A model generated the notes under the pieces. The model saw only the letters and a program-made list of their open reading frames with translations, ran no database searches and was not told the origin of the DNA. A stretch of 31,817 bases of DNA from contig JAMWCK010000001.1 of NCBI GenBank assembly GCA_023819625.1, forward strand, positions 1 to 31,817. The letters are read 5' to 3'. The stretch comes from Candidatus Omnitrophota bacterium. GTDB taxonomy: Bacteria > Omnitrophota > Gorgyraeia > Gygaellales > Profunditerraquicolaceae. Of this stretch, positions 21,467 to 31,089 are shown in pieces. Numbering within the stretch: position 1 is the stretch's first letter; each line of letters opens with the position of its first letter. Position numbers and translations under genes: made by a program.

Positions 21467-22459
21467 ATGGGGATAAAATGGAGTGATTTTCAATTACCCA
21501 AGCGCCTGGAGTGCGATGAATCCAGTTACACCAATACCTACGGTAAATTTTTTGCTAGTCCTTTTGAACGTGGCTATGGAGTGACCTTGGGTAATAGTTT
21601 GCGTCGGGTTCTGCTTTCTTCTATAGAAGGCAGTGCCGTAACTTCAATAAGAATCCAAGGGGTACAACATGAATTTTCTGCCATTCCTGGCGTACTGGAA
21701 GATGTGCCAGAGATAATCTTAAACATTAAAAATCTGATTATTAGATCACATTCCAGGATTCCCAAGACCATTGTTCTTAGACGCGATACCAAAGGCGAGG
21801 TGAAGGCAGGCGATATTGAAACAGATGCAACTATTGAAATAATCAATCCCGACCTGCACATCGCTACCTTAACCAAAGATACTAAATTTCACCTAGAAAT
21901 GGAGGTTGCCCGGGGTAGGGGCTATGTCCCTTCAGAACTTAACAAAAAGGAGGATTCACCGATTGGGGTAATTCCCATTGATTCTATATTTAGCCCGGTA
22001 AAAAAGGTGAATTTCTATGTAGAGAATACCCGTGTGGGCCAGCGCACAGATTACGATAAATTGATTTTAGAAATTTGGACAAATGGGGCAATAACCCCTA
22101 AGGATGCACTCCTTTATGCCTCTAATATCCTGCAGCGTCATTTAGATATCTTTGTTAATTTTGGGCAATTACCTGAAGAGCCCGAGGAAGAAGAACTGGA
22201 GATAAGCAAAGAAGAAATCGCCCTTTATGAAAAATTGCGTTTACCCATTTCCGAATTAGAGCTCTCTGTAAGAAGTTCTAATTGCCTCAGGGAAGCCAAC
22301 ATTAAAATTATTGCCGATTTGGTAAAAAAGACAGAACAAGAATTGCTCAGTTTCAAAAATTTTGGCAAGAAGTCCTTAAATGAAATAAAAGAACTCCTTG
22401 CCGGTATGGGCTTAAGCTTAGGGATGCAAGTTGATTCTAAGAAATTTAAAAAGATATAA
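21467..22459 (+). CDS. rpoA: DNA-directed RNA polymerase alpha subunit
   Basis: PFERGYGVTLGNSLRRVLLSS, HEFSAIPGV, RVGQRTDYDKL, alpha-CTD LELSVRSSNCL, NFGKKSL. Confidence 0.99.
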   Translation: MGIKWSDFQLPKRLECDESSYTNTYGKFFASPFERGYGVTLGNSLRRVLLSSIEGSAVTSIRIQGVQHEFSAIPGVLEDVPEIILNIKNLIIRSHSRIPKTIVLRRDTKGEVKAGDIETDATIEIINPDLHIATLTKDTKFHLEMEVARGRGYVPSELNKKEDSPIGVIPIDSIFSPVKKVNFYVENTRVGQRTDYDKLILEIWTNGAITPKDALLYASNILQRHLDIFVNFGQLPEEPEEEELEISKEEIALYEKLRLPISELELSVRSSNCLREANIKIIADLVKKTEQELLSFKNFGKKSLNEIKELLAGMGLSLGMQVDSKKFKKI

Positions 22460-23046: not shown

Positions 23047-24222
23047 ATGCGCATAGAGACACGGATTGCTGAACGAATAAAAAAGATCAATCCTTCCTCA
23101 ACGCTTGTCATCACCTCTCAGGCCAAAAAACTAAAATCTGAAGGTAAAGACATTGTAAATTTTGCTGCGGGTGAACCTGACTTTGATACACCCGAATTTA
23201 TCAAAGACGCCTGCCGTAAGGCATTAGATTTGGGTTTTACCAAATATACACCTAGCAGCGGAATTCCCGAATTAAAAGAACTCATCGCCAAAAAATTTAA
23301 AAAAGATAATGGGTTAGATTACAGCCCCAAGCAGATTATAGTCTCCTGCGGGGCAAAACACAGTATTTTTAATGCCCTTATGGTTTTGTTAAATCCACAG
23401 GATGAGGTCTTGATACCTTCTCCTTACTGGGTAAGTTATCCGCAAATGGTGCATCTGTGTCAAGGAAAGGTTCGTTTTATTAAGACATCTGCCCAAAATA
23501 ATTTTAAGTTAGATCCGCAAGAGTTAAAAAAATACATCACCCCCAAAACAAAACTACTTATTTTAAATAGCCCCGCTAATCCTACAGGATGTGTGTATAC
23601 GCATGATGAGTTAAAAGAAATTGCCAAGATTTGCGTGGAAAAGAAACTCTTTGTCTTAAGCGATGAGATTTACGAAAAACTCATTTACGATGGTGTCAAA
23701 CATATCTCAATTGCTTCTTTGGGTAAAGATATCTATAATCTTACCCTGACCGTAAATGGAGTATCTAAGAGTTATGCCATGACCGGTTGGCGGATTGGTT
23801 ATTTGGGTGCACCACAAGATTTAGCAGAGGCAATTGCGAAGGTACAGGACCATACTACTTCTAATCCAACCTCAATTGCCCAAAAGGCGGCTGTGGCTGC
23901 TTTGGCTATGTCTGATGATTTTTCTAAGAGAATTTGCCAAGAATTTCAGAAAAGAAGAGATTATATGGTCCTACGTTTAAGGGAATTAAAGGAATTAAGT
24001 TTTGTCTTGCCCCAAGGTGCTTTTTACATCTTTTGTAACATCGCCAAGACTGGTTTAGATAGTTCAACCTTTGCCCAACGCCTTCTTAACGAGGCGTTCG
24101 TTGCACTTATTCCCGGTGATGGATTCGGCAGAGACGACTATGTGCGTTTAAGTTTTGCTACCGGTATAGAGGAAATTGAAAAGGGAATGAATAGAATAAA
24201 AGATTGGCTAAACAAGTTATAA
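23047..24222 (+). CDS. aspC: PLP-dependent class I aminotransferase (aspartate aminotransferase-like)
   Basis: GEPDFDTP, YTPSSG, GAKHS, NSPANPTG, SDEIYE, SKSYAMTGWRIGY (PLP lysine), PQGAFY, YVRLSFA. Confidence 0.9.
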   Translation: MRIETRIAERIKKINPSSTLVITSQAKKLKSEGKDIVNFAAGEPDFDTPEFIKDACRKALDLGFTKYTPSSGIPELKELIAKKFKKDNGLDYSPKQIIVSCGAKHSIFNALMVLLNPQDEVLIPSPYWVSYPQMVHLCQGKVRFIKTSAQNNFKLDPQELKKYITPKTKLLILNSPANPTGCVYTHDELKEIAKICVEKKLFVLSDEIYEKLIYDGVKHISIASLGKDIYNLTLTVNGVSKSYAMTGWRIGYLGAPQDLAEAIAKVQDHTTSNPTSIAQKAAVAALAMSDDFSKRICQEFQKRRDYMVLRLRELKELSFVLPQGAFYIFCNIAKTGLDSSTFAQRLLNEAFVALIPGDGFGRDDYVRLSFATGIEEIEKGMNRIKDWLNKL

Positions 24223-24226
24223 TAAT

Positions 24227-25480
24227 ATGGGAAAAACAATTGCCGAGAAAATCTTAAGTAGACATGCCGGGCGAGATTTAAGGGCTGGAGATTTTGCCAT
24301 TTGTAAGGTAGATTTTACCTTTGGGCAAGATGGAACCTCAGCGATTATTATTGACCGCATAAAAGAACTTAAATTAAAACAACTAAAAACTAATTTCTGT
24401 ATGGTAATTGACCATAGTGCCCCTTCGCCTAACGAAGGTATATCAAGGGTACATAAAAAAATGCGCCAGTTTGCGAGAGAATTTAATACCTTACTTTATG
24501 ATATCGGCTGTGGAATTTGCCATCAGGTAATTCCTGAATCAGGAAAAATTCTGCCTGGAGATTTAGTATTAGGGGCGGATTCGCATACCTCTACTTATGG
24601 GGCATTAGGTATTTTCTCTTGTGGCGTGGGCTCAACAGATTTAGCCATTACTTTGGCTACGGGCAAAAACTGGTTTAAGGTACCCAGTACCTTCAAGATA
24701 ATTCTAAAAGGAGAAATCCCCAAAGGGGTATTTGCCAAAGATATTATTCTTTATCTCATCCGCGAACTCAAGGCCGATGGGGCAACTTATAAAGCAATAG
24801 AGTTTTATGGACCAGTAATTAATGCCTTGGATATGGATGGTCGCTTTACTATCTGTAATATGGTAGTAGAAATGGGGGCAAAGGTTGGTTTTATGCCCCA
24901 AGATAGAAAAACATTTACCTGGTTAAAATCCCACGGAGTAGATCTTAAAAGGATAAGACCTCAGGTGGCTGATAGAAATGCAGTTTATGAGCGCGTTTTG
25001 GAGTTTGATATCTCTAAATTAAAACCGCAAGTAAGTCAACCACACAGCGTAGATAATGTTACAGATATTGATAGATTAAAAAAGGTTAAAATAAATGAGG
25101 CATTTTTAGGCACCTGCACGAATGGAAGATTATCAGACCTAAGAGTGGCAGCGAAAATATTAAAATCTAAAAAAATTGCGCCGGGAATAAAATTTATTCT
25201 TGCTCCTGCCTCAAAAAGGGTCTTTTTAGAAGCCCTAGAATCGGGTATAATAAACATATTTATTAAGGCGGGAGCGGTGGTGATAAGCCCGGGTTGTGGT
25301 CCTTGTGTAGGCACGCATGCAGGGATTCCGGCAGATGAAGAAGTAGTTATTTCATCAGCCAACCGCAATTTTAAGGGGCGCATGGGTAATCCAAAGGCTG
25401 ATATTTATTTAGCCTCACCGGCAACAGTAGCGGCCTCTGCTATTACCGGTTATATTACTGACCCAAGAAGATATTTATAG
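24227..25480 (+). CDS. Aconitase-family [4Fe-4S] hydratase large subunit (LeuC/HacA type, 417 aa)
   Basis: DH, GICHQV, GADSHT, GTCTNGR and PGCGPCVG (three Fe-S Cys), NRNFKGRMG, LASP. Substrate cannot be fixed from sequence alone. Confidence 0.93.
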   Translation: MGKTIAEKILSRHAGRDLRAGDFAICKVDFTFGQDGTSAIIIDRIKELKLKQLKTNFCMVIDHSAPSPNEGISRVHKKMRQFAREFNTLLYDIGCGICHQVIPESGKILPGDLVLGADSHTSTYGALGIFSCGVGSTDLAITLATGKNWFKVPSTFKIILKGEIPKGVFAKDIILYLIRELKADGATYKAIEFYGPVINALDMDGRFTICNMVVEMGAKVGFMPQDRKTFTWLKSHGVDLKRIRPQVADRNAVYERVLEFDISKLKPQVSQPHSVDNVTDIDRLKKVKINEAFLGTCTNGRLSDLRVAAKILKSKKIAPGIKFILAPASKRVFLEALESGIINIFIKAGAVVISPGCGPCVGTHAGIPADEEVVISSANRNFKGRMGNPKADIYLASPATVAASAITGYITDPRRYL

Positions 25481-25501
25481 CAATGCAATAGGGAGGAAGA
25501 A

Positions 25502-26548
25502 ATGGAAATCAGAGACCTACTTTTGTTGTGTATTGAAAAAAAGGCTTCTGACTTACACATCACTGAGAATGAGCCGCCGATATTACGCATCGATGGGAAA
25601 TTATATCGCACTAATTTAGAGGTTTTAAGTAAGGAAACACTAAAACGCATGATTTATAGTATCTTAACTAATCCTCAGAAAGAGATATTTGAGCGGGATT
25701 TAGAATTGGATTTTTCTCTGGCACTTCCAGGTATGGATAGGTTCAGGGTGAATATTCATTTACAGAAAGGAAGTGTTGAGGCAGCCTTTCGTCGTATTCC
25801 CTTAGTAATTCCAAGTATGGAGGAATTGGGTTTACCGCCAATAGTGCAAGAATTGGCGCGCAAACCTAACGGTTTAGTTTTAGTTACCGGACCAACAGGT
25901 ATGGGTAAGACTACTACACTAGCAGCAATGATTGATTTGATTAATAACGAAAGAGAGTGTCTGGTTATCTGTATTGAAGACCCGATTGAGTTTATCCATA
26001 AGAATAAAAAGAGCATTATTAAGCAAAGAGAGGTTTATTCGGATACCCACAGCTTTGCTGAGGCCTTAAGACATGCCCTTCGCCAAGACCCCAATGTCAT
26101 TGTGGTCGGTGAAATGCGAGATTTAGAAACAATTTCTACTACGCTTACGGCAGCAGAGACCGGACATTTAGTCTTGGCAACCTTGCATACACCCGATGCG
26201 CCACAGACAGTGCAAAGAATTATCGATGTCTTTGCTCCACATCAACAACAACAGATAAGGTTACAATTAGCCGATTCATTACAGGGGGTAATTTCGCAAT
26301 TGCTCCTTCCCAAGGCCTCGGGTAGGGGGCGGGTTCTGGCTACGGAAATTATGATTGGTACCGCGGGTATTAGAAATTTAATCCGTGAACAGGAAATTGA
26401 GCAGATTCCCACTTTAATACAAACCGGCGGGCAATACGGAATGAAGACTATGGATAAATCCTTAAAAGAACTCTATCAGGCGGGGCTGGTGGCTTTAGAT
26501 GTGGTGCTTTCTAAGGCCAAAAATATCGACGAATTTAAACGGCTATGA
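25502..26548 (+). CDS. pilT: Type IV pilus retraction ATPase PilT
   Basis: ASDLH, Walker A GPTGMGKTTT, Asp box IEDPIE, Walker B DPNVIVVGEMRD, His box TGHLVLATLHT, GIRNLIRE (AIRNLIRE motif); SD GGAGG 25492-25496. Confidence 0.93.
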   Translation: MEIRDLLLLCIEKKASDLHITENEPPILRIDGKLYRTNLEVLSKETLKRMIYSILTNPQKEIFERDLELDFSLALPGMDRFRVNIHLQKGSVEAAFRRIPLVIPSMEELGLPPIVQELARKPNGLVLVTGPTGMGKTTTLAAMIDLINNERECLVICIEDPIEFIHKNKKSIIKQREVYSDTHSFAEALRHALRQDPNVIVVGEMRDLETISTTLTAAETGHLVLATLHTPDAPQTVQRIIDVFAPHQQQQIRLQLADSLQGVISQLLLPKASGRGRVLATEIMIGTAGIRNLIREQEIEQIPTLIQTGGQYGMKTMDKSLKELYQAGLVALDVVLSKAKNIDEFKRL

Positions 26549-27048
26549 TTCTAGAAGGCAAGGTTATAAAATTAGGCGATAATATCAACACCGACCTCAT
26601 TATTTCCGGACGCTATAAATTTGCCATTACCGATATCAAAGAACTCTCCAGACATATAATGGAAGATATCGATCCTGATTTCGTGCAGAAGATTATTCCA
26701 AGAAAGTCTATTATTGTCGCAGGAAAAAACTTCGGTTTAGGCTCATCACGAGAACAGGCTCCCCTGGTAATAAAAGAGGCAGGAATTGTGGCGGTTTTGG
26801 CAAAGACATTTGCGCGCATATTTTACCGTAATGCCTTTAATATCGGCTTACCCTTGGTAGAAACGGATACAGATAAAATTGAAGAAAGGGATTTCTTGGT
26901 TATAGATTTAAATAAGGGTTTAATCAGGAATTTGACTAAGAATATAGAGCTTACGATTAAACCATTACCTAAATTTATGCAAAGACTCCTTAAAGCCAAA
27001 GGAATAGTAAATTATTATAATAAATACAAGAGATTACCCGAATTATAA
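26545..27048 (+). CDS. Aconitase-family hydratase small subunit (LeuD/HacB type)
   Basis: NINTDLII, NFGLGSSREQAP, FARIFYRNAFNIGLP; ATGA overlap with pilT stop. Confidence 0.93.
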   Translation: MILEGKVIKLGDNINTDLIISGRYKFAITDIKELSRHIMEDIDPDFVQKIIPRKSIIVAGKNFGLGSSREQAPLVIKEAGIVAVLAKTFARIFYRNAFNIGLPLVETDTDKIEERDFLVIDLNKGLIRNLTKNIELTIKPLPKFMQRLLKAKGIVNYYNKYKRLPEL

Positions 27049-27071
27049 TCTGATTAAGAATCCCTTAAAAT

Positions 27072-28154
27072 ATGAAGCATAGGATTACCTTAATTCCTGG
27101 TGACGGTATTGGTCCGGAAGTAACCGCGGCGGCAAGGCGCTGCATTGAGGCAACGGGTGTTAAGATTGAATGGGAAGAGGCGATTGCCGGAGAAGTTGCC
27201 TTAGAAAAAACCGGCAATTTGTTGCCTAAACAGACACTCGAGTCAATTAAAAAAAATAAAGTCGCCTTAAAGGGTCCAATCATTACGCCCATCGGCGAAG
27301 GTTTTCGTTCGGTAAACGTAGCCTTAAGACAGGCCTTAGACTTATACGCCTGTGTGCGTCCGGCGAAGTCCTACAACGGAGTAAAGAGTTTTTATAAGGA
27401 TATAGACTTAGTAGTCATCAGGGAAAATACCGAAGATTTATACGCAGGCATTGAGTTTGAAAGAGGAAAACCAGAAACAAAAAGGTTAATTAAAGAAATT
27501 AAAATGCTTACAGAAAAAAGAATCCGTGCGGATTCAGGAATTTCTCTTAAGCTGATTTCTGAATTTGCCTCGCGACGGATTATCAAATTTGCCTTTGAAT
27601 ACGCCATAAGAGATAAGCGGAAAAAATTAACCGCAGTGCATAAGGCAAATATTATGAAATTTACTGATGGACTCTTCTTAAAGACAGCGCGGGAAGTCGC
27701 CAAAGAATATGAGGGTAAAATAATTTTTGAAGAAATAATTGTAGATAATCTGGCAATGCAACTTGTAAAGGCACCGAGAAATTTTGATGTTTTGGTCTTG
27801 CCGAATTTATATGGTGATATTATCTCAGATTTATGTGCGGGATTAATTGGTGGTCTAGGTATTGCTCCGGGGGCAAATATCGGTGATGAGATAGCGGTAT
27901 TTGAAGCCGTTCACGGCGCTGCACCCAAATATAAGGGGAGCAATCGGGTTAACCCTTCAGCAATGATTTTATCAGGGGTGCTGATGCTAAGATTTATTAA
28001 AGAAGATAGGGCGGCAGATAAATTAGAAAATGCACTAAAACAAGTGATTGCCGAAGGAAAATCCGTAACCTACGATTTAAAGGATGACCGCAATGATCCC
28101 AGTGCCGTAGGAACACAAGAGATGGCAGAGGCAATTATTACTAAAATCAAATGA
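27072..28154 (+). CDS. icd: Isocitrate dehydrogenase (IDH/IPMDH family), probably NADP-dependent
   Basis: IPGDGIGPEV, RSVNVALRQ (Ser/Asn isocitrate determinants), IRENTEDLY, VHKANI, NLYGDIISD, EAVHGAAPKY (Lys-Tyr as in NADP-type enzymes). Confidence 0.85.
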   Translation: MKHRITLIPGDGIGPEVTAAARRCIEATGVKIEWEEAIAGEVALEKTGNLLPKQTLESIKKNKVALKGPIITPIGEGFRSVNVALRQALDLYACVRPAKSYNGVKSFYKDIDLVVIRENTEDLYAGIEFERGKPETKRLIKEIKMLTEKRIRADSGISLKLISEFASRRIIKFAFEYAIRDKRKKLTAVHKANIMKFTDGLFLKTAREVAKEYEGKIIFEEIIVDNLAMQLVKAPRNFDVLVLPNLYGDIISDLCAGLIGGLGIAPGANIGDEIAVFEAVHGAAPKYKGSNRVNPSAMILSGVLMLRFIKEDRAADKLENALKQVIAEGKSVTYDLKDDRNDPSAVGTQEMAEAIITKIK

Positions 28155-28208
28155 ACTTTATTCTTCCAAAACAAATAAGTAAGCACTAACACTCAAAGGA
28201 AAAAGAAA

Positions 28209-29129
28209 TTGAAAATTTCTATTATTGGCGCCGGTAATGTCGGCAGTACCACAGCGCTACGGTTATGTAGCGAAAATTTAGGTGAGGTAATCCTTGTAGA
28301 TAAACTCCCTGGATTAGCCCAGGGCAAGGCCTTAGATTTAGAGGATGCGCAGGCAATACTAAAATACACTTACAATATTCAGGGAACAGATGATATAAAA
28401 AAAATAAAGCATTCAGATATCGTGGTAATTACTGCTGGCTTTCCCCGCAGACCGGGTCAGAGGCGCGAAGAGTTATTCAGTAAAAATGCTGAGATCATAA
28501 AAGAGGTCTCTTTGCAGATTAAAGAGTTGGCACCTGAGGCGATTGTTATCGTAGTTACCAATCCTTTAGATTTAATGACCTACCTTGCCTTAAAAATCAC
28601 TGCTTTTAGTCCTAAGAGGGTATTGGGTATGGGTATTAGTTTAGATGCAGCAAGATTCGCTAACCTTATTGCCAAAGAGTTAGATATTTCTCCCACAGAG
28701 ATTGAGGCTACGGTTATCGGAAGTCATGGTGAATGGATGCTTCCACTTGCCCGATTTACATATATTAAGGGCATAGCTTTAGATAAATTTCTCGGTGAAG
28801 AAAAAATAAGAAAGCTTATCAAAAAGACCATAAATCGCGGTGCAGAAATTGTATTTTTATTGGGTTCTGGCAGTGCCTGCCTTGCTCCTTCGGCAGCAAT
28901 TGTAGAGTTGATTAAAGCCATTGCCAAAGACCAAAAACGCATTCTGGGTGTCTCGGCATACCTTAAGGGTGAATACGGGGTAAATGATGTCTGTATTGGT
29001 GTTTATTGCCAACTGGGTAGAGAAGGAATTGAAAAAATTATTGAACTCAACTTAAATAAAGAAGAAAAACAGGCATTTGTCAACTCCGCCAATAAACTTA
29101 AAGAACAATACCACATGCTAGCCGTATAA
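28209..29129 (+). CDS. mdh: Malate dehydrogenase (LDH-like family), TTG start
   Basis: GAGNVG, GKALD, TAGFPRRPG (Arg at the MDH/LDH discriminating site), NPLD, LDAARF, GSHG; SD AAAGGA 28195-28200. Confidence 0.9.
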   Translation: MKISIIGAGNVGSTTALRLCSENLGEVILVDKLPGLAQGKALDLEDAQAILKYTYNIQGTDDIKKIKHSDIVVITAGFPRRPGQRREELFSKNAEIIKEVSLQIKELAPEAIVIVVTNPLDLMTYLALKITAFSPKRVLGMGISLDAARFANLIAKELDISPTEIEATVIGSHGEWMLPLARFTYIKGIALDKFLGEEKIRKLIKKTINRGAEIVFLLGSGSACLAPSAAIVELIKAIAKDQKRILGVSAYLKGEYGVNDVCIGVYCQLGREGIEKIIELNLNKEEKQAFVNSANKLKEQYHMLAV

Positions 29130-29131
29130 AA

Positions 29132-30388
29132 ATGACTGAATATGACCTTGTAATTATCGGTAGCGGTTGGGCAGGTTTTAATGCGGCATTAAGGGCCAAA
29201 GAATTTGGCCTTAAGGTTTGTTTGCTTGAAAAAAGTCAAATTGGCGGTGTATGTTTAAATCTTGGCTGCATCCCTACTAAGACCTTAATCCAAGCGGCAA
29301 AAGTATTTAATCTTACCCGTAAGTCCACAAATTTTGGAATTGAAAGCGTAAATCCACAAATAAATTGGAGTAAAATTCAGGAGAGGAAGGATAAAATCAT
29401 CCAACAACTGCGTTTGGGTATGCAGTTGATGCTTAAGGGAATTGATTTCTTTCCTGCCGAAGCCGAAGTTTTGTCAAATCAAGAAATAAGGTCAGGGGAT
29501 AAAATCCTCAAAACAAAATTTATTTTGCTTGCTGTAGGCTCAAAACCCCTAGAGCTTCCTAATCTAAAATTTGATGGCAAAAAGATTGTCTCAAGCGACG
29601 AAATCATAAACTTAAAAGAAATTCCTAAATCCCTGTTAATCATCGGCGGTGGGGTAATTGGTTGTGAATTTGCGAGTTTATTTTCCATGTTTGGTAGTCG
29701 GGTTTCAATCGTAGAGAAGATGCCACAACTTTTGCCGGGTGAAGACGCAGAAGTTGCCCGAAGGCTACAGGCAATCTTTAAAAAGCGTGGGATAAATGTT
29801 AGCACAAATACAGATGCAACTAATTTAGATATAAAAAATTACGATTTAGTTTTACTGTCTATAGGCAGGGTATCGCAGGCCCCCCAAATTCAGGTAGATG
29901 AATACCTGAGGACAAAGATACCGAACATTTATGCTGCAGGGGACTGTACTAAAAAGATAATGCTGGCACATTTTGCTGCTTATCAGGGAAGAATTGCGGC
30001 AGAAAATATTGCCCATCCGCAAAATCCCAAAAAGGCCGATAATCCCCATATTCCTAACTGTATTTTTACTCTTCCTGAGATTGCTAGCGTTGGCTTAAGT
30101 GAAGAAAAGGCAAAGACCATGGGTTTAGAAATAAAGATAAAAAAATTTGATTTTATGGCCTCGGGCATGGCACATATTCTAGATGAGACAGAAGGGTTTA
30201 TTAAGATAGTTTCCGACGGTAAAACCGGTGAAATCAAAGGCGCCTCAATTATTGGACCTTATGCCACTGAACTTATCGGGATTTTGACTTTAGCCATAAC
30301 TCAGCATCTTACACTTTCGTCTCTTAAGGATACCCTCTTTGCCCATCCTACCTTATCTGAATCTATTATTGAGGCCCTAAAAGACTAA
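29132..30388 (+). CDS. lpdA: Dihydrolipoamide dehydrogenase (compact, 418 aa)
   Basis: IIGSGWAG FAD motif, GGVCLNLGCIPTK disulfide, GGGVIGCE NAD motif, IYAAGD, HPTLSE His-Glu pair. Confidence 0.9.
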   Translation: MTEYDLVIIGSGWAGFNAALRAKEFGLKVCLLEKSQIGGVCLNLGCIPTKTLIQAAKVFNLTRKSTNFGIESVNPQINWSKIQERKDKIIQQLRLGMQLMLKGIDFFPAEAEVLSNQEIRSGDKILKTKFILLAVGSKPLELPNLKFDGKKIVSSDEIINLKEIPKSLLIIGGGVIGCEFASLFSMFGSRVSIVEKMPQLLPGEDAEVARRLQAIFKKRGINVSTNTDATNLDIKNYDLVLLSIGRVSQAPQIQVDEYLRTKIPNIYAAGDCTKKIMLAHFAAYQGRIAAENIAHPQNPKKADNPHIPNCIFTLPEIASVGLSEEKAKTMGLEIKIKKFDFMASGMAHILDETEGFIKIVSDGKTGEIKGASIIGPYATELIGILTLAITQHLTLSSLKDTLFAHPTLSESIIEALKD

Positions 30389-30390
30389 AT

Positions 30391-31089
30391 ATGAAACTAA
30401 ATGTCTTTGATTTAGGCCTGGTTGATTTTAGACTTGCCCAACAGTTTCAAGAAAGGATATTCTACGAGGTAAAAAAGGAAATAATTGCCTTTGGGCTAAT
30501 TCTTTGTCAACACTATCCGGTAATTACTTTAGGAAGAACCGCAAAAAAAGAAAATATTTTAATTTCTGAAGAGGAATTAAAAAATAAGGGGATTGCGGTC
30601 TATGTGACACAACGGGGTGGAGATGTTACTTATCACGGCCCCGGACAACTGTTGGTCTATCCGATATTTAATTTAAGTTATCTAAAAAAAGATATACACT
30701 GGTTTTTAAGAAGATTGGAAGGGTTACTGATAAATCTATTCTTTGATTTCGGTTTAAATACGCAACGGCGTAGGGGCTTAACCGGGGTTTGGGTGGGCGA
30801 GAAAAAAATCGCCTCCATCGGCATTGCGATCAAAAACTGGATTACCTTCTACGGATTAAGTATAAATATCAAGAAAAATGACCTGGATAATTTTCGATTC
30901 ATTAGACCTTGTGGTATGGATATAGAAATGACGACCTTGGAAGAGTCCTTAAATAAAGAGGTTGAGGTGGAGGTTCTAAAAGAAAAAATCGTCCCTAAAT
31001 TTCAAGATATCTTCATTATACCTAAACGATTATACCAAGGAGGTATCCATGACCAAAGTATACTTACCGGAATTGGGCGAGGGGATTGA
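30391..31089 (+). CDS. lipB: Octanoyltransferase LipB
   Basis: HYPVITLG, RGGDVTYHGPGQ, KIASIG, catalytic PCG. Confidence 0.93.
   Translation: MKLNVFDLGLVDFRLAQQFQERIFYEVKKEIIAFGLILCQHYPVITLGRTAKKENILISEEELKNKGIAVYVTQRGGDVTYHGPGQLLVYPIFNLSYLKKDIHWFLRRLEGLLINLFFDFGLNTQRRRGLTGVWVGEKKIASIGIAIKNWITFYGLSINIKKNDLDNFRFIRPCGMDIEMTTLEESLNKEVEVEVLKEKIVPKFQDIFIIPKRLYQGGIHDQSILTGIGRGD

Follow-up and report, generated by a model that had tools for sequence, protein, structure and literature searches.

A leuCD-annotated enzyme pair next to isocitrate dehydrogenase is a probable aconitase in Candidatus Omnitrophota

Results

The subject of this study is a cluster of metabolic genes from a Candidatus Omnitrophota bacterium (assembly GCA_023819625.1, contig JAMWCK010000001.1, positions 1 to 31,817), and in particular a pair of genes that encode a LeuC/HacA-type large subunit and a LeuD-type small subunit. 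The window referred to below is this whole stretch of 31,817 nucleotides, which corresponds to contig C65 of the genome; genes were called from its open reading frame (ORF) listing together with NCBIfam and Pfam family scans. The pair lies with genes for a class I aminotransferase, an isocitrate dehydrogenase (ICDH) and a malate dehydrogenase (MDH), and all of the cluster genes are on the plus strand and tightly packed, with intergenic gaps of 2 to 54 nt in the ORF listing (Table 1). An earlier note, made from the DNA letters alone, had listed these five genes, quoted the motifs GRYKFAI, GSSREQA and RSVNVALRQ from their products, and remarked that the window encodes no isopropylmalate synthase. 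We located all of the genes and motifs and agree on the missing synthase, but the description of the cluster had omitted a complete pilT gene that separates the large- and small-subunit genes. We propose that the pair, despite its automatic naming, is very probably a heterodimeric [4Fe-4S] hydro-lyase that would interconvert citrate, cis-aconitate and isocitrate as the only aconitase of this organism. The proposal draws on the gene identities, the conserved synteny, the lack of any other aconitase (also in closed relatives), the complementary distribution and a set of clade-specific residues.

Table 1. Genes and motifs of the cluster and its flanks in the window
Feature	Position	Strand	Remarks
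rpoA	21467-22459	+	
L17	22491-23030	+	
Class I PLP aminotransferase, aspartate-aminotransferase-like, 391 aa	23047-24222	+	PF00155 266 bits
LeuC/HacA-type large subunit, 417 aa	24227-25480	+	PF00330
GQDGTS motif of large subunit	24323-24340	+	Gln34, equivalent of mitochondrial aconitase Gln72
PilT-family type IV pilus retraction ATPase, 348 aa	25502-26548	+	TIGR01420 462 bits, cut-off 319
LeuD-type small subunit, 167 aa	26545-27048	+	PF00694
Small-subunit loop GRYKFAI, residues 22-28	26608-26628	+	
Small-subunit GSSREQA, residues 66-72	26740-26760	+	
Iso_dh-family isocitrate dehydrogenase, 360 aa	27072-28154	+	
ICDH substrate helix RSVNVALRQ, residues 79-87	27306-27332	+	
NAD-dependent malate dehydrogenase, LDH-like, 306 aa, TTG start	28209-29129	+	PRK06223 389 bits, cut-off 283; TIGR01763 331 bits
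Dihydrolipoyl dehydrogenase (Lpd)	29132-30388	+	TIGR01350 434 bits
LipB	30391-31089	+	

The large subunit scored above the cut-offs of three subfamily models, NF001614 (547 bits; cut-off, 385), TIGR02086 (532; 410) and TIGR01343 (524; 386). It fell below those of the equivalog models for LEU2 (TIGR02083; 469 against 610.65), for the methanogen homoaconitase HacA (NF040615; 460 against 550) and for the curated aconitases PRK07229 (347 against 612), AcnA (122 against 686) and AcnB (119 against 1287). Its three [4Fe-4S] cluster cysteines sit in GTCTNGR and GCGPCVG. The small subunit likewise scored above the TIGR02087 subfamily cut-off (178 bits; cut-off, 109) and below the leuD equivalog TIGR02084 (184.5 against 245.85) and the HacB equivalogs NF040604 and NF040625 (180 and 145, each against 230), and it carries the GSSRE motif of aconitase superfamily small subunits. 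A search for homologues of the small subunit matched only close Omnitrophota orthologues, labelled leuD under both JGI and NCBI names, and the Protein Atlas entries hold only automatic "leuD" names. The expectation that pipelines would mislabel the pair as leuCD was borne out by the leuC and leuD names that JGI and NCBI give to the orthologues.

We compared residues across 90 window-type large subunits, 23 LeuC paralogues, 14 fused aconitases and 6 large Omnitrophota aconitases, with the comparisons to M. jannaschii and Thermus enzymes here and below resting on printed PDB alignments and NCBIfam scores. The cleanest discriminating column was residue 34 of the large subunit. It is Gln in 98% of the 90 window-type sequences (GQDGT) and in all of the aligned fused (TQDAT), AcnA-like (LQDFT) and mitochondrial-like (MQDATAQ; the Gln72 position) aconitases; the same column is Asn in 23 of 23 LeuC paralogues and His in M. 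jannaschii HacA and LeuC. Gln72 of pig-heart aconitase is a substrate-binding residue, and Gln34 may bind the extra carboxylate of a tricarboxylate. At the level of sequence, this Gln is a stronger marker than the loop Lys on which the earlier note had relied, and the note had missed it.

The small-subunit loop is the second distinctive feature. Window-type sequences (97, from several phyla) follow the pattern IISG[RK][YH]KF[ASKQHR][IT], in which Lys25-Phe26 is invariant and one residue is inserted. Its counterparts are A[RK]Y-L[VN]x in LeuD paralogues, ARYL-VYT in the M. jannaschii isopropylmalate isomerase (IPMI), GPYL-RTT in the M. jannaschii homoaconitase (HACN) and AGAKILPLRSN in the fused aconitases. 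The idea that this loop sets specificity reportedly comes from the M. jannaschii system and from Jeyakanthan et al. in 2010. The earlier note had likened the basic residue of the window loop to that of the methanogen homoaconitase loop (YLRT). A basic residue is indeed there, a clade-wide Lys that directly follows the Tyr (Tyr+1), but the loop has gained one residue and this Lys is not positionally equivalent to the HACN Arg or to Arg580 of aconitase. Many members outside the Omnitrophota add another basic residue (KFK or KFR), and this one falls in the column of the HACN Arg. Lys25 may contact the third, extra carboxylate of a tricarboxylate.

In a FastTree phylogeny of the large subunits, the window type grouped with archaeal-type LeuC and apart from the fused (0.99) and large aconitases; the LeuC clade had a support of 1.0, and the window type was weakly monophyletic (0.47) with one outlier. 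If the pair is an aconitase, the function would have arisen or persisted within the LeuCD/HacAB branch. We considered a split version of the clostridial fused aconitase and rejected it, since the PRK07229 score of the large subunit is in effect no higher than that of true LeuC (347 versus 328 to 345 bits) and the tree separates the two. A different two-subunit form, in which the loop STDHIAPGR[LY]FHLRSN retains the Arg, was seen at two Bacillota loci (L190 in genome G008 and L204 in G022). Its loop resembles that of the fused clostridial enzyme, from which this form probably arose by a genuine split. The form at L204 adjoins an MDH gene.

The dehydrogenase downstream of the pair was assigned as an ICDH because of its best PDB matches and its R-S-x-N motif. 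These matches are all isocitrate dehydrogenases (IDHs), namely, 6LKY (362 bits), the A. fulgidus IDH (2IV0; 328 bits) and human IDH3 alpha (297 bits), versus 246 bits for the Thermus homoisocitrate dehydrogenase and at most 234 bits for isopropylmalate dehydrogenases. Orthologues that adjoin the pair keep R-S-x-N-V-x-[LI]-R, while the LeuB of the same genome has the hydrophobic EKGVLLKIR there; in the earlier note, Ser-x-Asn in this helix is given as the mark of ICDHs. No NCBIfam equivalog cut-off was reached (397 against 510 bits), so that the assignment is to ICDHs in general and not to one subtype or cofactor preference. The aminotransferase had asp_aminotase_Arch as its best NCBIfam match (458 bits, under the cut-off of 550), and in most Omnitrophota loci its gene immediately precedes that of the large subunit; it may be the main consumer of 2-oxoglutarate.

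We considered that the pair might instead be a homoaconitase, working with a NifV-like homocitrate synthase, a homoisocitrate dehydrogenase and an aminoadipate aminotransferase to make lysine via 2-aminoadipate. The dehydrogenase is far closer to ICDHs than to homoisocitrate dehydrogenase, which speaks against this reading, as do the scores below the HacA and HacB cut-offs and the lack of a YLRT loop. In its favour, the M. jannaschii homoaconitase is the top PDB hit for the large subunit (368 bits), and it can also point to the adjoining class I aminotransferase and to a separate synthase of the NifV-like type elsewhere in the genome. However, the genome encodes the diaminopimelate-route enzyme LysA (503 bits; cut-off, 298), LysX was not found in it or in four relatives, and the distribution of the pair complements that of aconitase (see below). 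We regard a homoaconitase as extremely unlikely.

The earlier note had proposed that, if the pair replaces AcnA/AcnB, the genome should be checked for other aconitases, for a separate leuABCD set and for a citrate synthase. The genome is a metagenome-assembled genome (MAG) of 1.11 Mb in 136 contigs and is 89% complete, and at that completeness we found in it neither AcnA nor AcnB and no Si-citrate synthase (PF00285). It has two PF00330 genes only, one in the window and one on contig C124, where leuC-leuD-leuB lies beside asd and truA. The C124 LeuC passes the LEU2 cut-off (654 against 611 bits) and LeuB passes its own (521 against 393), with LeuD just below (243.9 against 245.85); with leuA, at the end of an ilv operon, a separate leucine set is accounted for. 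The closed genomes of Candidatus Velamenicoccus archaeovorus LiM and CP070837 each hold exactly two aconitase-family genes of about 420 aa and no Si-citrate synthase, and this removes the caveat of incompleteness.

Besides leuA and cimA (771 bits), the genome encodes a third HMGL-like synthase, a NifV-like protein of 413 aa on contig C34 (C34:4637-5875; PF00682, 178 bits) that scores below the nifV, leuA and cimA cut-offs. Its N terminus reads IDVTNRDGVQT, versus DTTLRDG[EA]Q in the LeuA and CimA of the same genome, and it has the HMGL-like catalytic domain without a LeuA-type regulatory domain. The protein is 67 to 84% identical in 40 other Omnitrophota genomes, every one of which bears the pair. 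On these sequence features it is the candidate citrate synthase of the genome and is probably Re-specific. Its gene is flanked by purA and by a 602-aa ORF of unknown function, with serA nearby.

The closest loci to the window all belong to Candidatus Omnitrophota, including the closed V. archaeovorus LiM genome. The order rpoA-L17-aminotransferase-large-(pilT)-small-ICDH-MDH-Lpd-LipB is repeated in dozens of Omnitrophota loci, and large-small-ICDH recurs in Syntrophomonas, Peptococcaceae, Desulfotomaculum and Coriobacteriaceae, with Dictyoglomus also among the non-Omnitrophota loci that hold the core large-small(-ICDH); such recurrence shows that the arrangement is not due to chance. At the loci outside the Omnitrophota, an HMGL-like gene stands immediately upstream of the large subunit, and its product is closer to the C34 protein (61 to 65% identity at L069 and L074 and about 36% at the others) than to LeuA or CimA. 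Since the synthase is joined to the pair and ICDH in other phyla, the four functions of a single operon are here divided between two sites. Across 20 other genomes of the phylum, the second copy of the small subunit was mostly part of leuC-leuD-leuB, with five loci holding only part of the trio.

For the distribution of the pair, we sampled 121 Omnitrophota genomes that were 85% complete or better. Canonical aconitases, either AcnA-like (about 900 aa) or mitochondrial-like (about 760 aa), occurred together with one bacterial LeuC in 64 of them, and among these 64 we counted a Si-citrate synthase in 63, the window small-subunit type in none and the C34-type synthase in none. Another 52 of the 121 carried the pair plus a second LeuCD (two large subunits of about 420 aa and two small subunits of about 165 aa) and no large aconitase, with a C34-type synthase (at least 67% identity) in 41 and a Si-type enzyme in 4. 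The remaining 5 genomes fell in neither group. The 4 genomes with the Si-type enzyme, which combine it with an ICDH and the pair as the only aconitase candidate, are especially telling. The aconitase of about 760 aa, with the mitochondrial-type motifs MQDATAQ and WLKYRGH, was seen in G097, G109, G084, G130, G171, G149, G125 and G155.

An independent sample of 61 Bacillota genomes, in which the pair was recognised by its loop motif and its linkage to ICDH, gave a similar picture. The pair was present in 8, each with only two family members of about 420 aa, and other genomes of the sample had a fused PRK07229 aconitase (30 genomes) or AcnA (3 genomes); the pair and the fused form were mutually exclusive in this sample. 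The outcome of the genome checks and the complementarity in two phyla together support the interpretation that the pair supplies the citrate-to-isocitrate activity in place of AcnA/AcnB, and comparative genomics makes this claim of the earlier note a highly likely one.

The genome inventory also bears on whether the pair could be a second isopropylmalate/citramalate isomerase, for instance for a CimA route to isoleucine, with the adjacency to ICDH a coincidence. CimA is encoded in this genome, archaeal-type LeuCD enzymes isomerise citramalate (PDB entries 4KP1 and 3VBA are named "isopropylmalate/citramalate isomerase") and LeuC is the closest phylogenetic neighbour of the large subunit. However, CimA is found in 118 of the 121 Omnitrophota genomes, including the 64 with one LeuCD and a canonical aconitase, so that CimA needs no second isomerase. 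Bacillota cimA adjoins canonical leuDC rather than the pair (L186 and L198), the pair stays linked to ICDH from phylum to phylum and does not occur together with canonical aconitases, and both of its subunits score under the LeuC and LeuD equivalog cut-offs. A second isomerase therefore seems to us very improbable.

The gene that interrupts the pair, pilT, overlaps the small-subunit gene by 4 nt, its stop codon and the small-subunit ATG sharing ATGA. It lies between the two subunits in 29 of the 56 Omnitrophota loci that hold both and is missing in the other 27. Where present, it is better conserved than the flanking subunits (mean identity of 77% versus 68 to 69%). No further pilus gene was found close to it, and pilT is outside the pathway.

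Upstream, the metabolic cluster trails rpoA and L17 at gaps of 16 to 31 nt, and a promoter and terminator scan gave no signal above chance between rpoA/L17 and the cluster. The conserved rpoA-L17-aminotransferase-large order and the short gaps suggest read-through from the alpha ribosomal operon, by which the cluster would be cotranscribed with it. Lpd and LipB follow MDH at 2-nt gaps and are kept downstream in many Omnitrophota loci; the window holds no E1/E2 or glycine-cleavage genes. In public sequencing data, the stretch is contained only in DNA reads from a hot-spring metagenome.

Discussion

Our findings point to a route from acetyl-CoA to 2-oxoglutarate in this Omnitrophota bacterium. 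The NifV-like synthase encoded on contig C34, probably Re-specific, would join acetyl-CoA and oxaloacetate to citrate, the LeuCD-type pair would isomerise the citrate, and the adjacent ICDH would yield 2-oxoglutarate. The neighbouring MDH and aminotransferase would then manage the exchange among oxaloacetate, malate and aspartate and between 2-oxoglutarate and glutamate. Overall, this would amount to the oxidative arm of a "horseshoe" tricarboxylic acid (TCA) pathway that serves biosynthesis only, while leucine and isoleucine would be made with the canonical leuCDB operon on contig C124. On a wider scale, the pair rather likely represents a distinct aconitase lineage, one that may have arisen inside LeuCD/HacAB through the Gln and the Lys-Phe insertion. 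In numerous strict anaerobes (Omnitrophota, Syntrophomonadaceae, Peptococcaceae and others), AcnA and the fused aconitases would have given way to it, always in company with a citrate synthase, usually of the Re type and in rare cases of the Si type.

Several observations weigh against an aconitase. The large subunit groups in the tree with archaeal-type LeuC rather than with aconitases, and aconitase function would thus be a neofunctionalisation. The small subunit has no Arg where aconitase has Arg580 (the aligned residue is Thr or Ile) or where homoaconitase has Arg26, and the conserved Lys lies 1 to 4 positions earlier than Arg580 or the HACN Arg, in a longer loop. The complementarity of canonical aconitase and pair tracks taxonomy at the level of families and classes, and the number of independent events is therefore far smaller than the number of genomes. 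Among the 52 pair-bearing Omnitrophota, 7 had neither type of citrate synthase at the thresholds used. The genome studied here is itself only 89% complete, and of the enzymes that might drain 2-oxoglutarate or provide oxaloacetate we found in it no glutamate dehydrogenase, no ATP-PEPCK and only a weak match to a glutamate-synthase domain. Finally, we know of no enzyme of the window-type clade that has been assayed.

Four pair-bearing genomes of one family (G089, G091, G111 and G167) have neither a Si- nor a C34-type synthase at the thresholds used; they may carry a more divergent synthase.

A further reading of the pair is a hydro-lyase that acts on another di- or tricarboxylate (2-methylcitrate, maleate or dimethylmaleate, or a tartrate-like compound) or a promiscuous enzyme with a physiological substrate other than citrate. 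The LeuD/DmdB family does take in dimethylmaleate hydratase, as the name of TIGR02087 records. Such a role is nevertheless very unlikely in our view: the conserved neighbourhood holds no genes for methylcitrate metabolism or nicotinate fermentation, and the ICDH would be left without a source of isocitrate in the closed genomes.

The naming of the pair has consequences. Because of automated leuC and leuD labels, surveys of Omnitrophota and other anaerobes record a fragmentary TCA cycle and rate citrate synthase as rare. With the pair and the NifV-like synthase read as the citrate-to-isocitrate steps, the biosynthesis of 2-oxoglutarate and glutamate would have no gap there in these reduced genomes. 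If this is true, KEGG-style reports of a "broken TCA cycle" are systematically wrong for the citrate-to-2-oxoglutarate arm in these groups. To tell the pair from true LeuCD, we suggest an annotation rule of Gln in the large-subunit motif G-Q-D-G-T together with G-[RK]-[YH]-K-F and its one-residue insertion in the small subunit.

The reading put forward by the earlier note is supported, but it was not new, having been published before in putative form (PMC4720418 and PMC8542988). Williams et al. (2021; PMC8542988) inferred the oxidative branch of a horseshoe TCA cycle in Ace Lake Omnitrophota, with a Si- or a Re-citrate synthase and never both. The footnote to their Supplementary Table S6 allows that an aconitase-family enzyme may act as aconitase, on the ground that two "3-isopropylmalate/(R)-2-methylmalate dehydratases" are found in 9 of 11 MAGs that lack AcnA. 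Unlike our analysis, theirs raised this as a possibility only, without synteny, diagnostic residues or phylum-wide counts. A 2026 preprint on 176 complete Omnitrophota genomes describes a "fragmentary" TCA cycle from KEGG calls, treats citrate synthase as a rarity and leaves aconitase unmentioned. Our outcome is a well-supported reannotation of a putative LeuCD-type aconitase group and is not conceptually new; what we add are the diagnostic residues and the complementarity counts in two phyla.

Among known systems, the fused Clostridia aconitase of about 645 aa (PRK07229/TIGR01342) shares the Gln72 equivalent (TQDATG) and is found in the same type of anaerobe. In contrast to the pair, it is a single chain, its loop AGAKILPLRSN keeps the equivalent of Arg580, and it forms a separate clade (0.99). 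The M. jannaschii enzymes, HACN (MJ1003/MJ1271; 4KP2 and 2PKP) and the IPMI/citramalate isomerase (MJ0499/MJ1277; 4KP1 and 3VBA), resemble the pair in two-subunit architecture, size and fold family, and against them the large subunit scored 347 to 368 bits and the small subunit 131 to 143 bits. They differ in having His in both large subunits where the window has Gln and in the loop, which is YLV in IPMI and YLR in HACN and, in the window, is YKF and one residue longer. The Methanocella "putative aconitase subunit 1/2" proteins are presumably of the AcnX type, and we set them aside and did not use them.

A close parallel in gene order and description is Dehalococcoides, whose annotations list such a pair as putative aconitase subunits (Islam et al. 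supplement; PMC4720418). The Dehalococcoides locus has neither the pilT insertion nor the fusion to rpoA/L17, and its operon includes a fumarase, of which the window cluster has none. The aconitase subunits are likewise only "putative" there, and the IDH has been found biochemically to be NADP dependent (PMC4720418). Like the Omnitrophota cluster, Dehalococcoides shows the order large-small-ICDH-MDH, and it combines this with a Re-citrate synthase in a branched, biosynthetic TCA pathway (PMC4720418).

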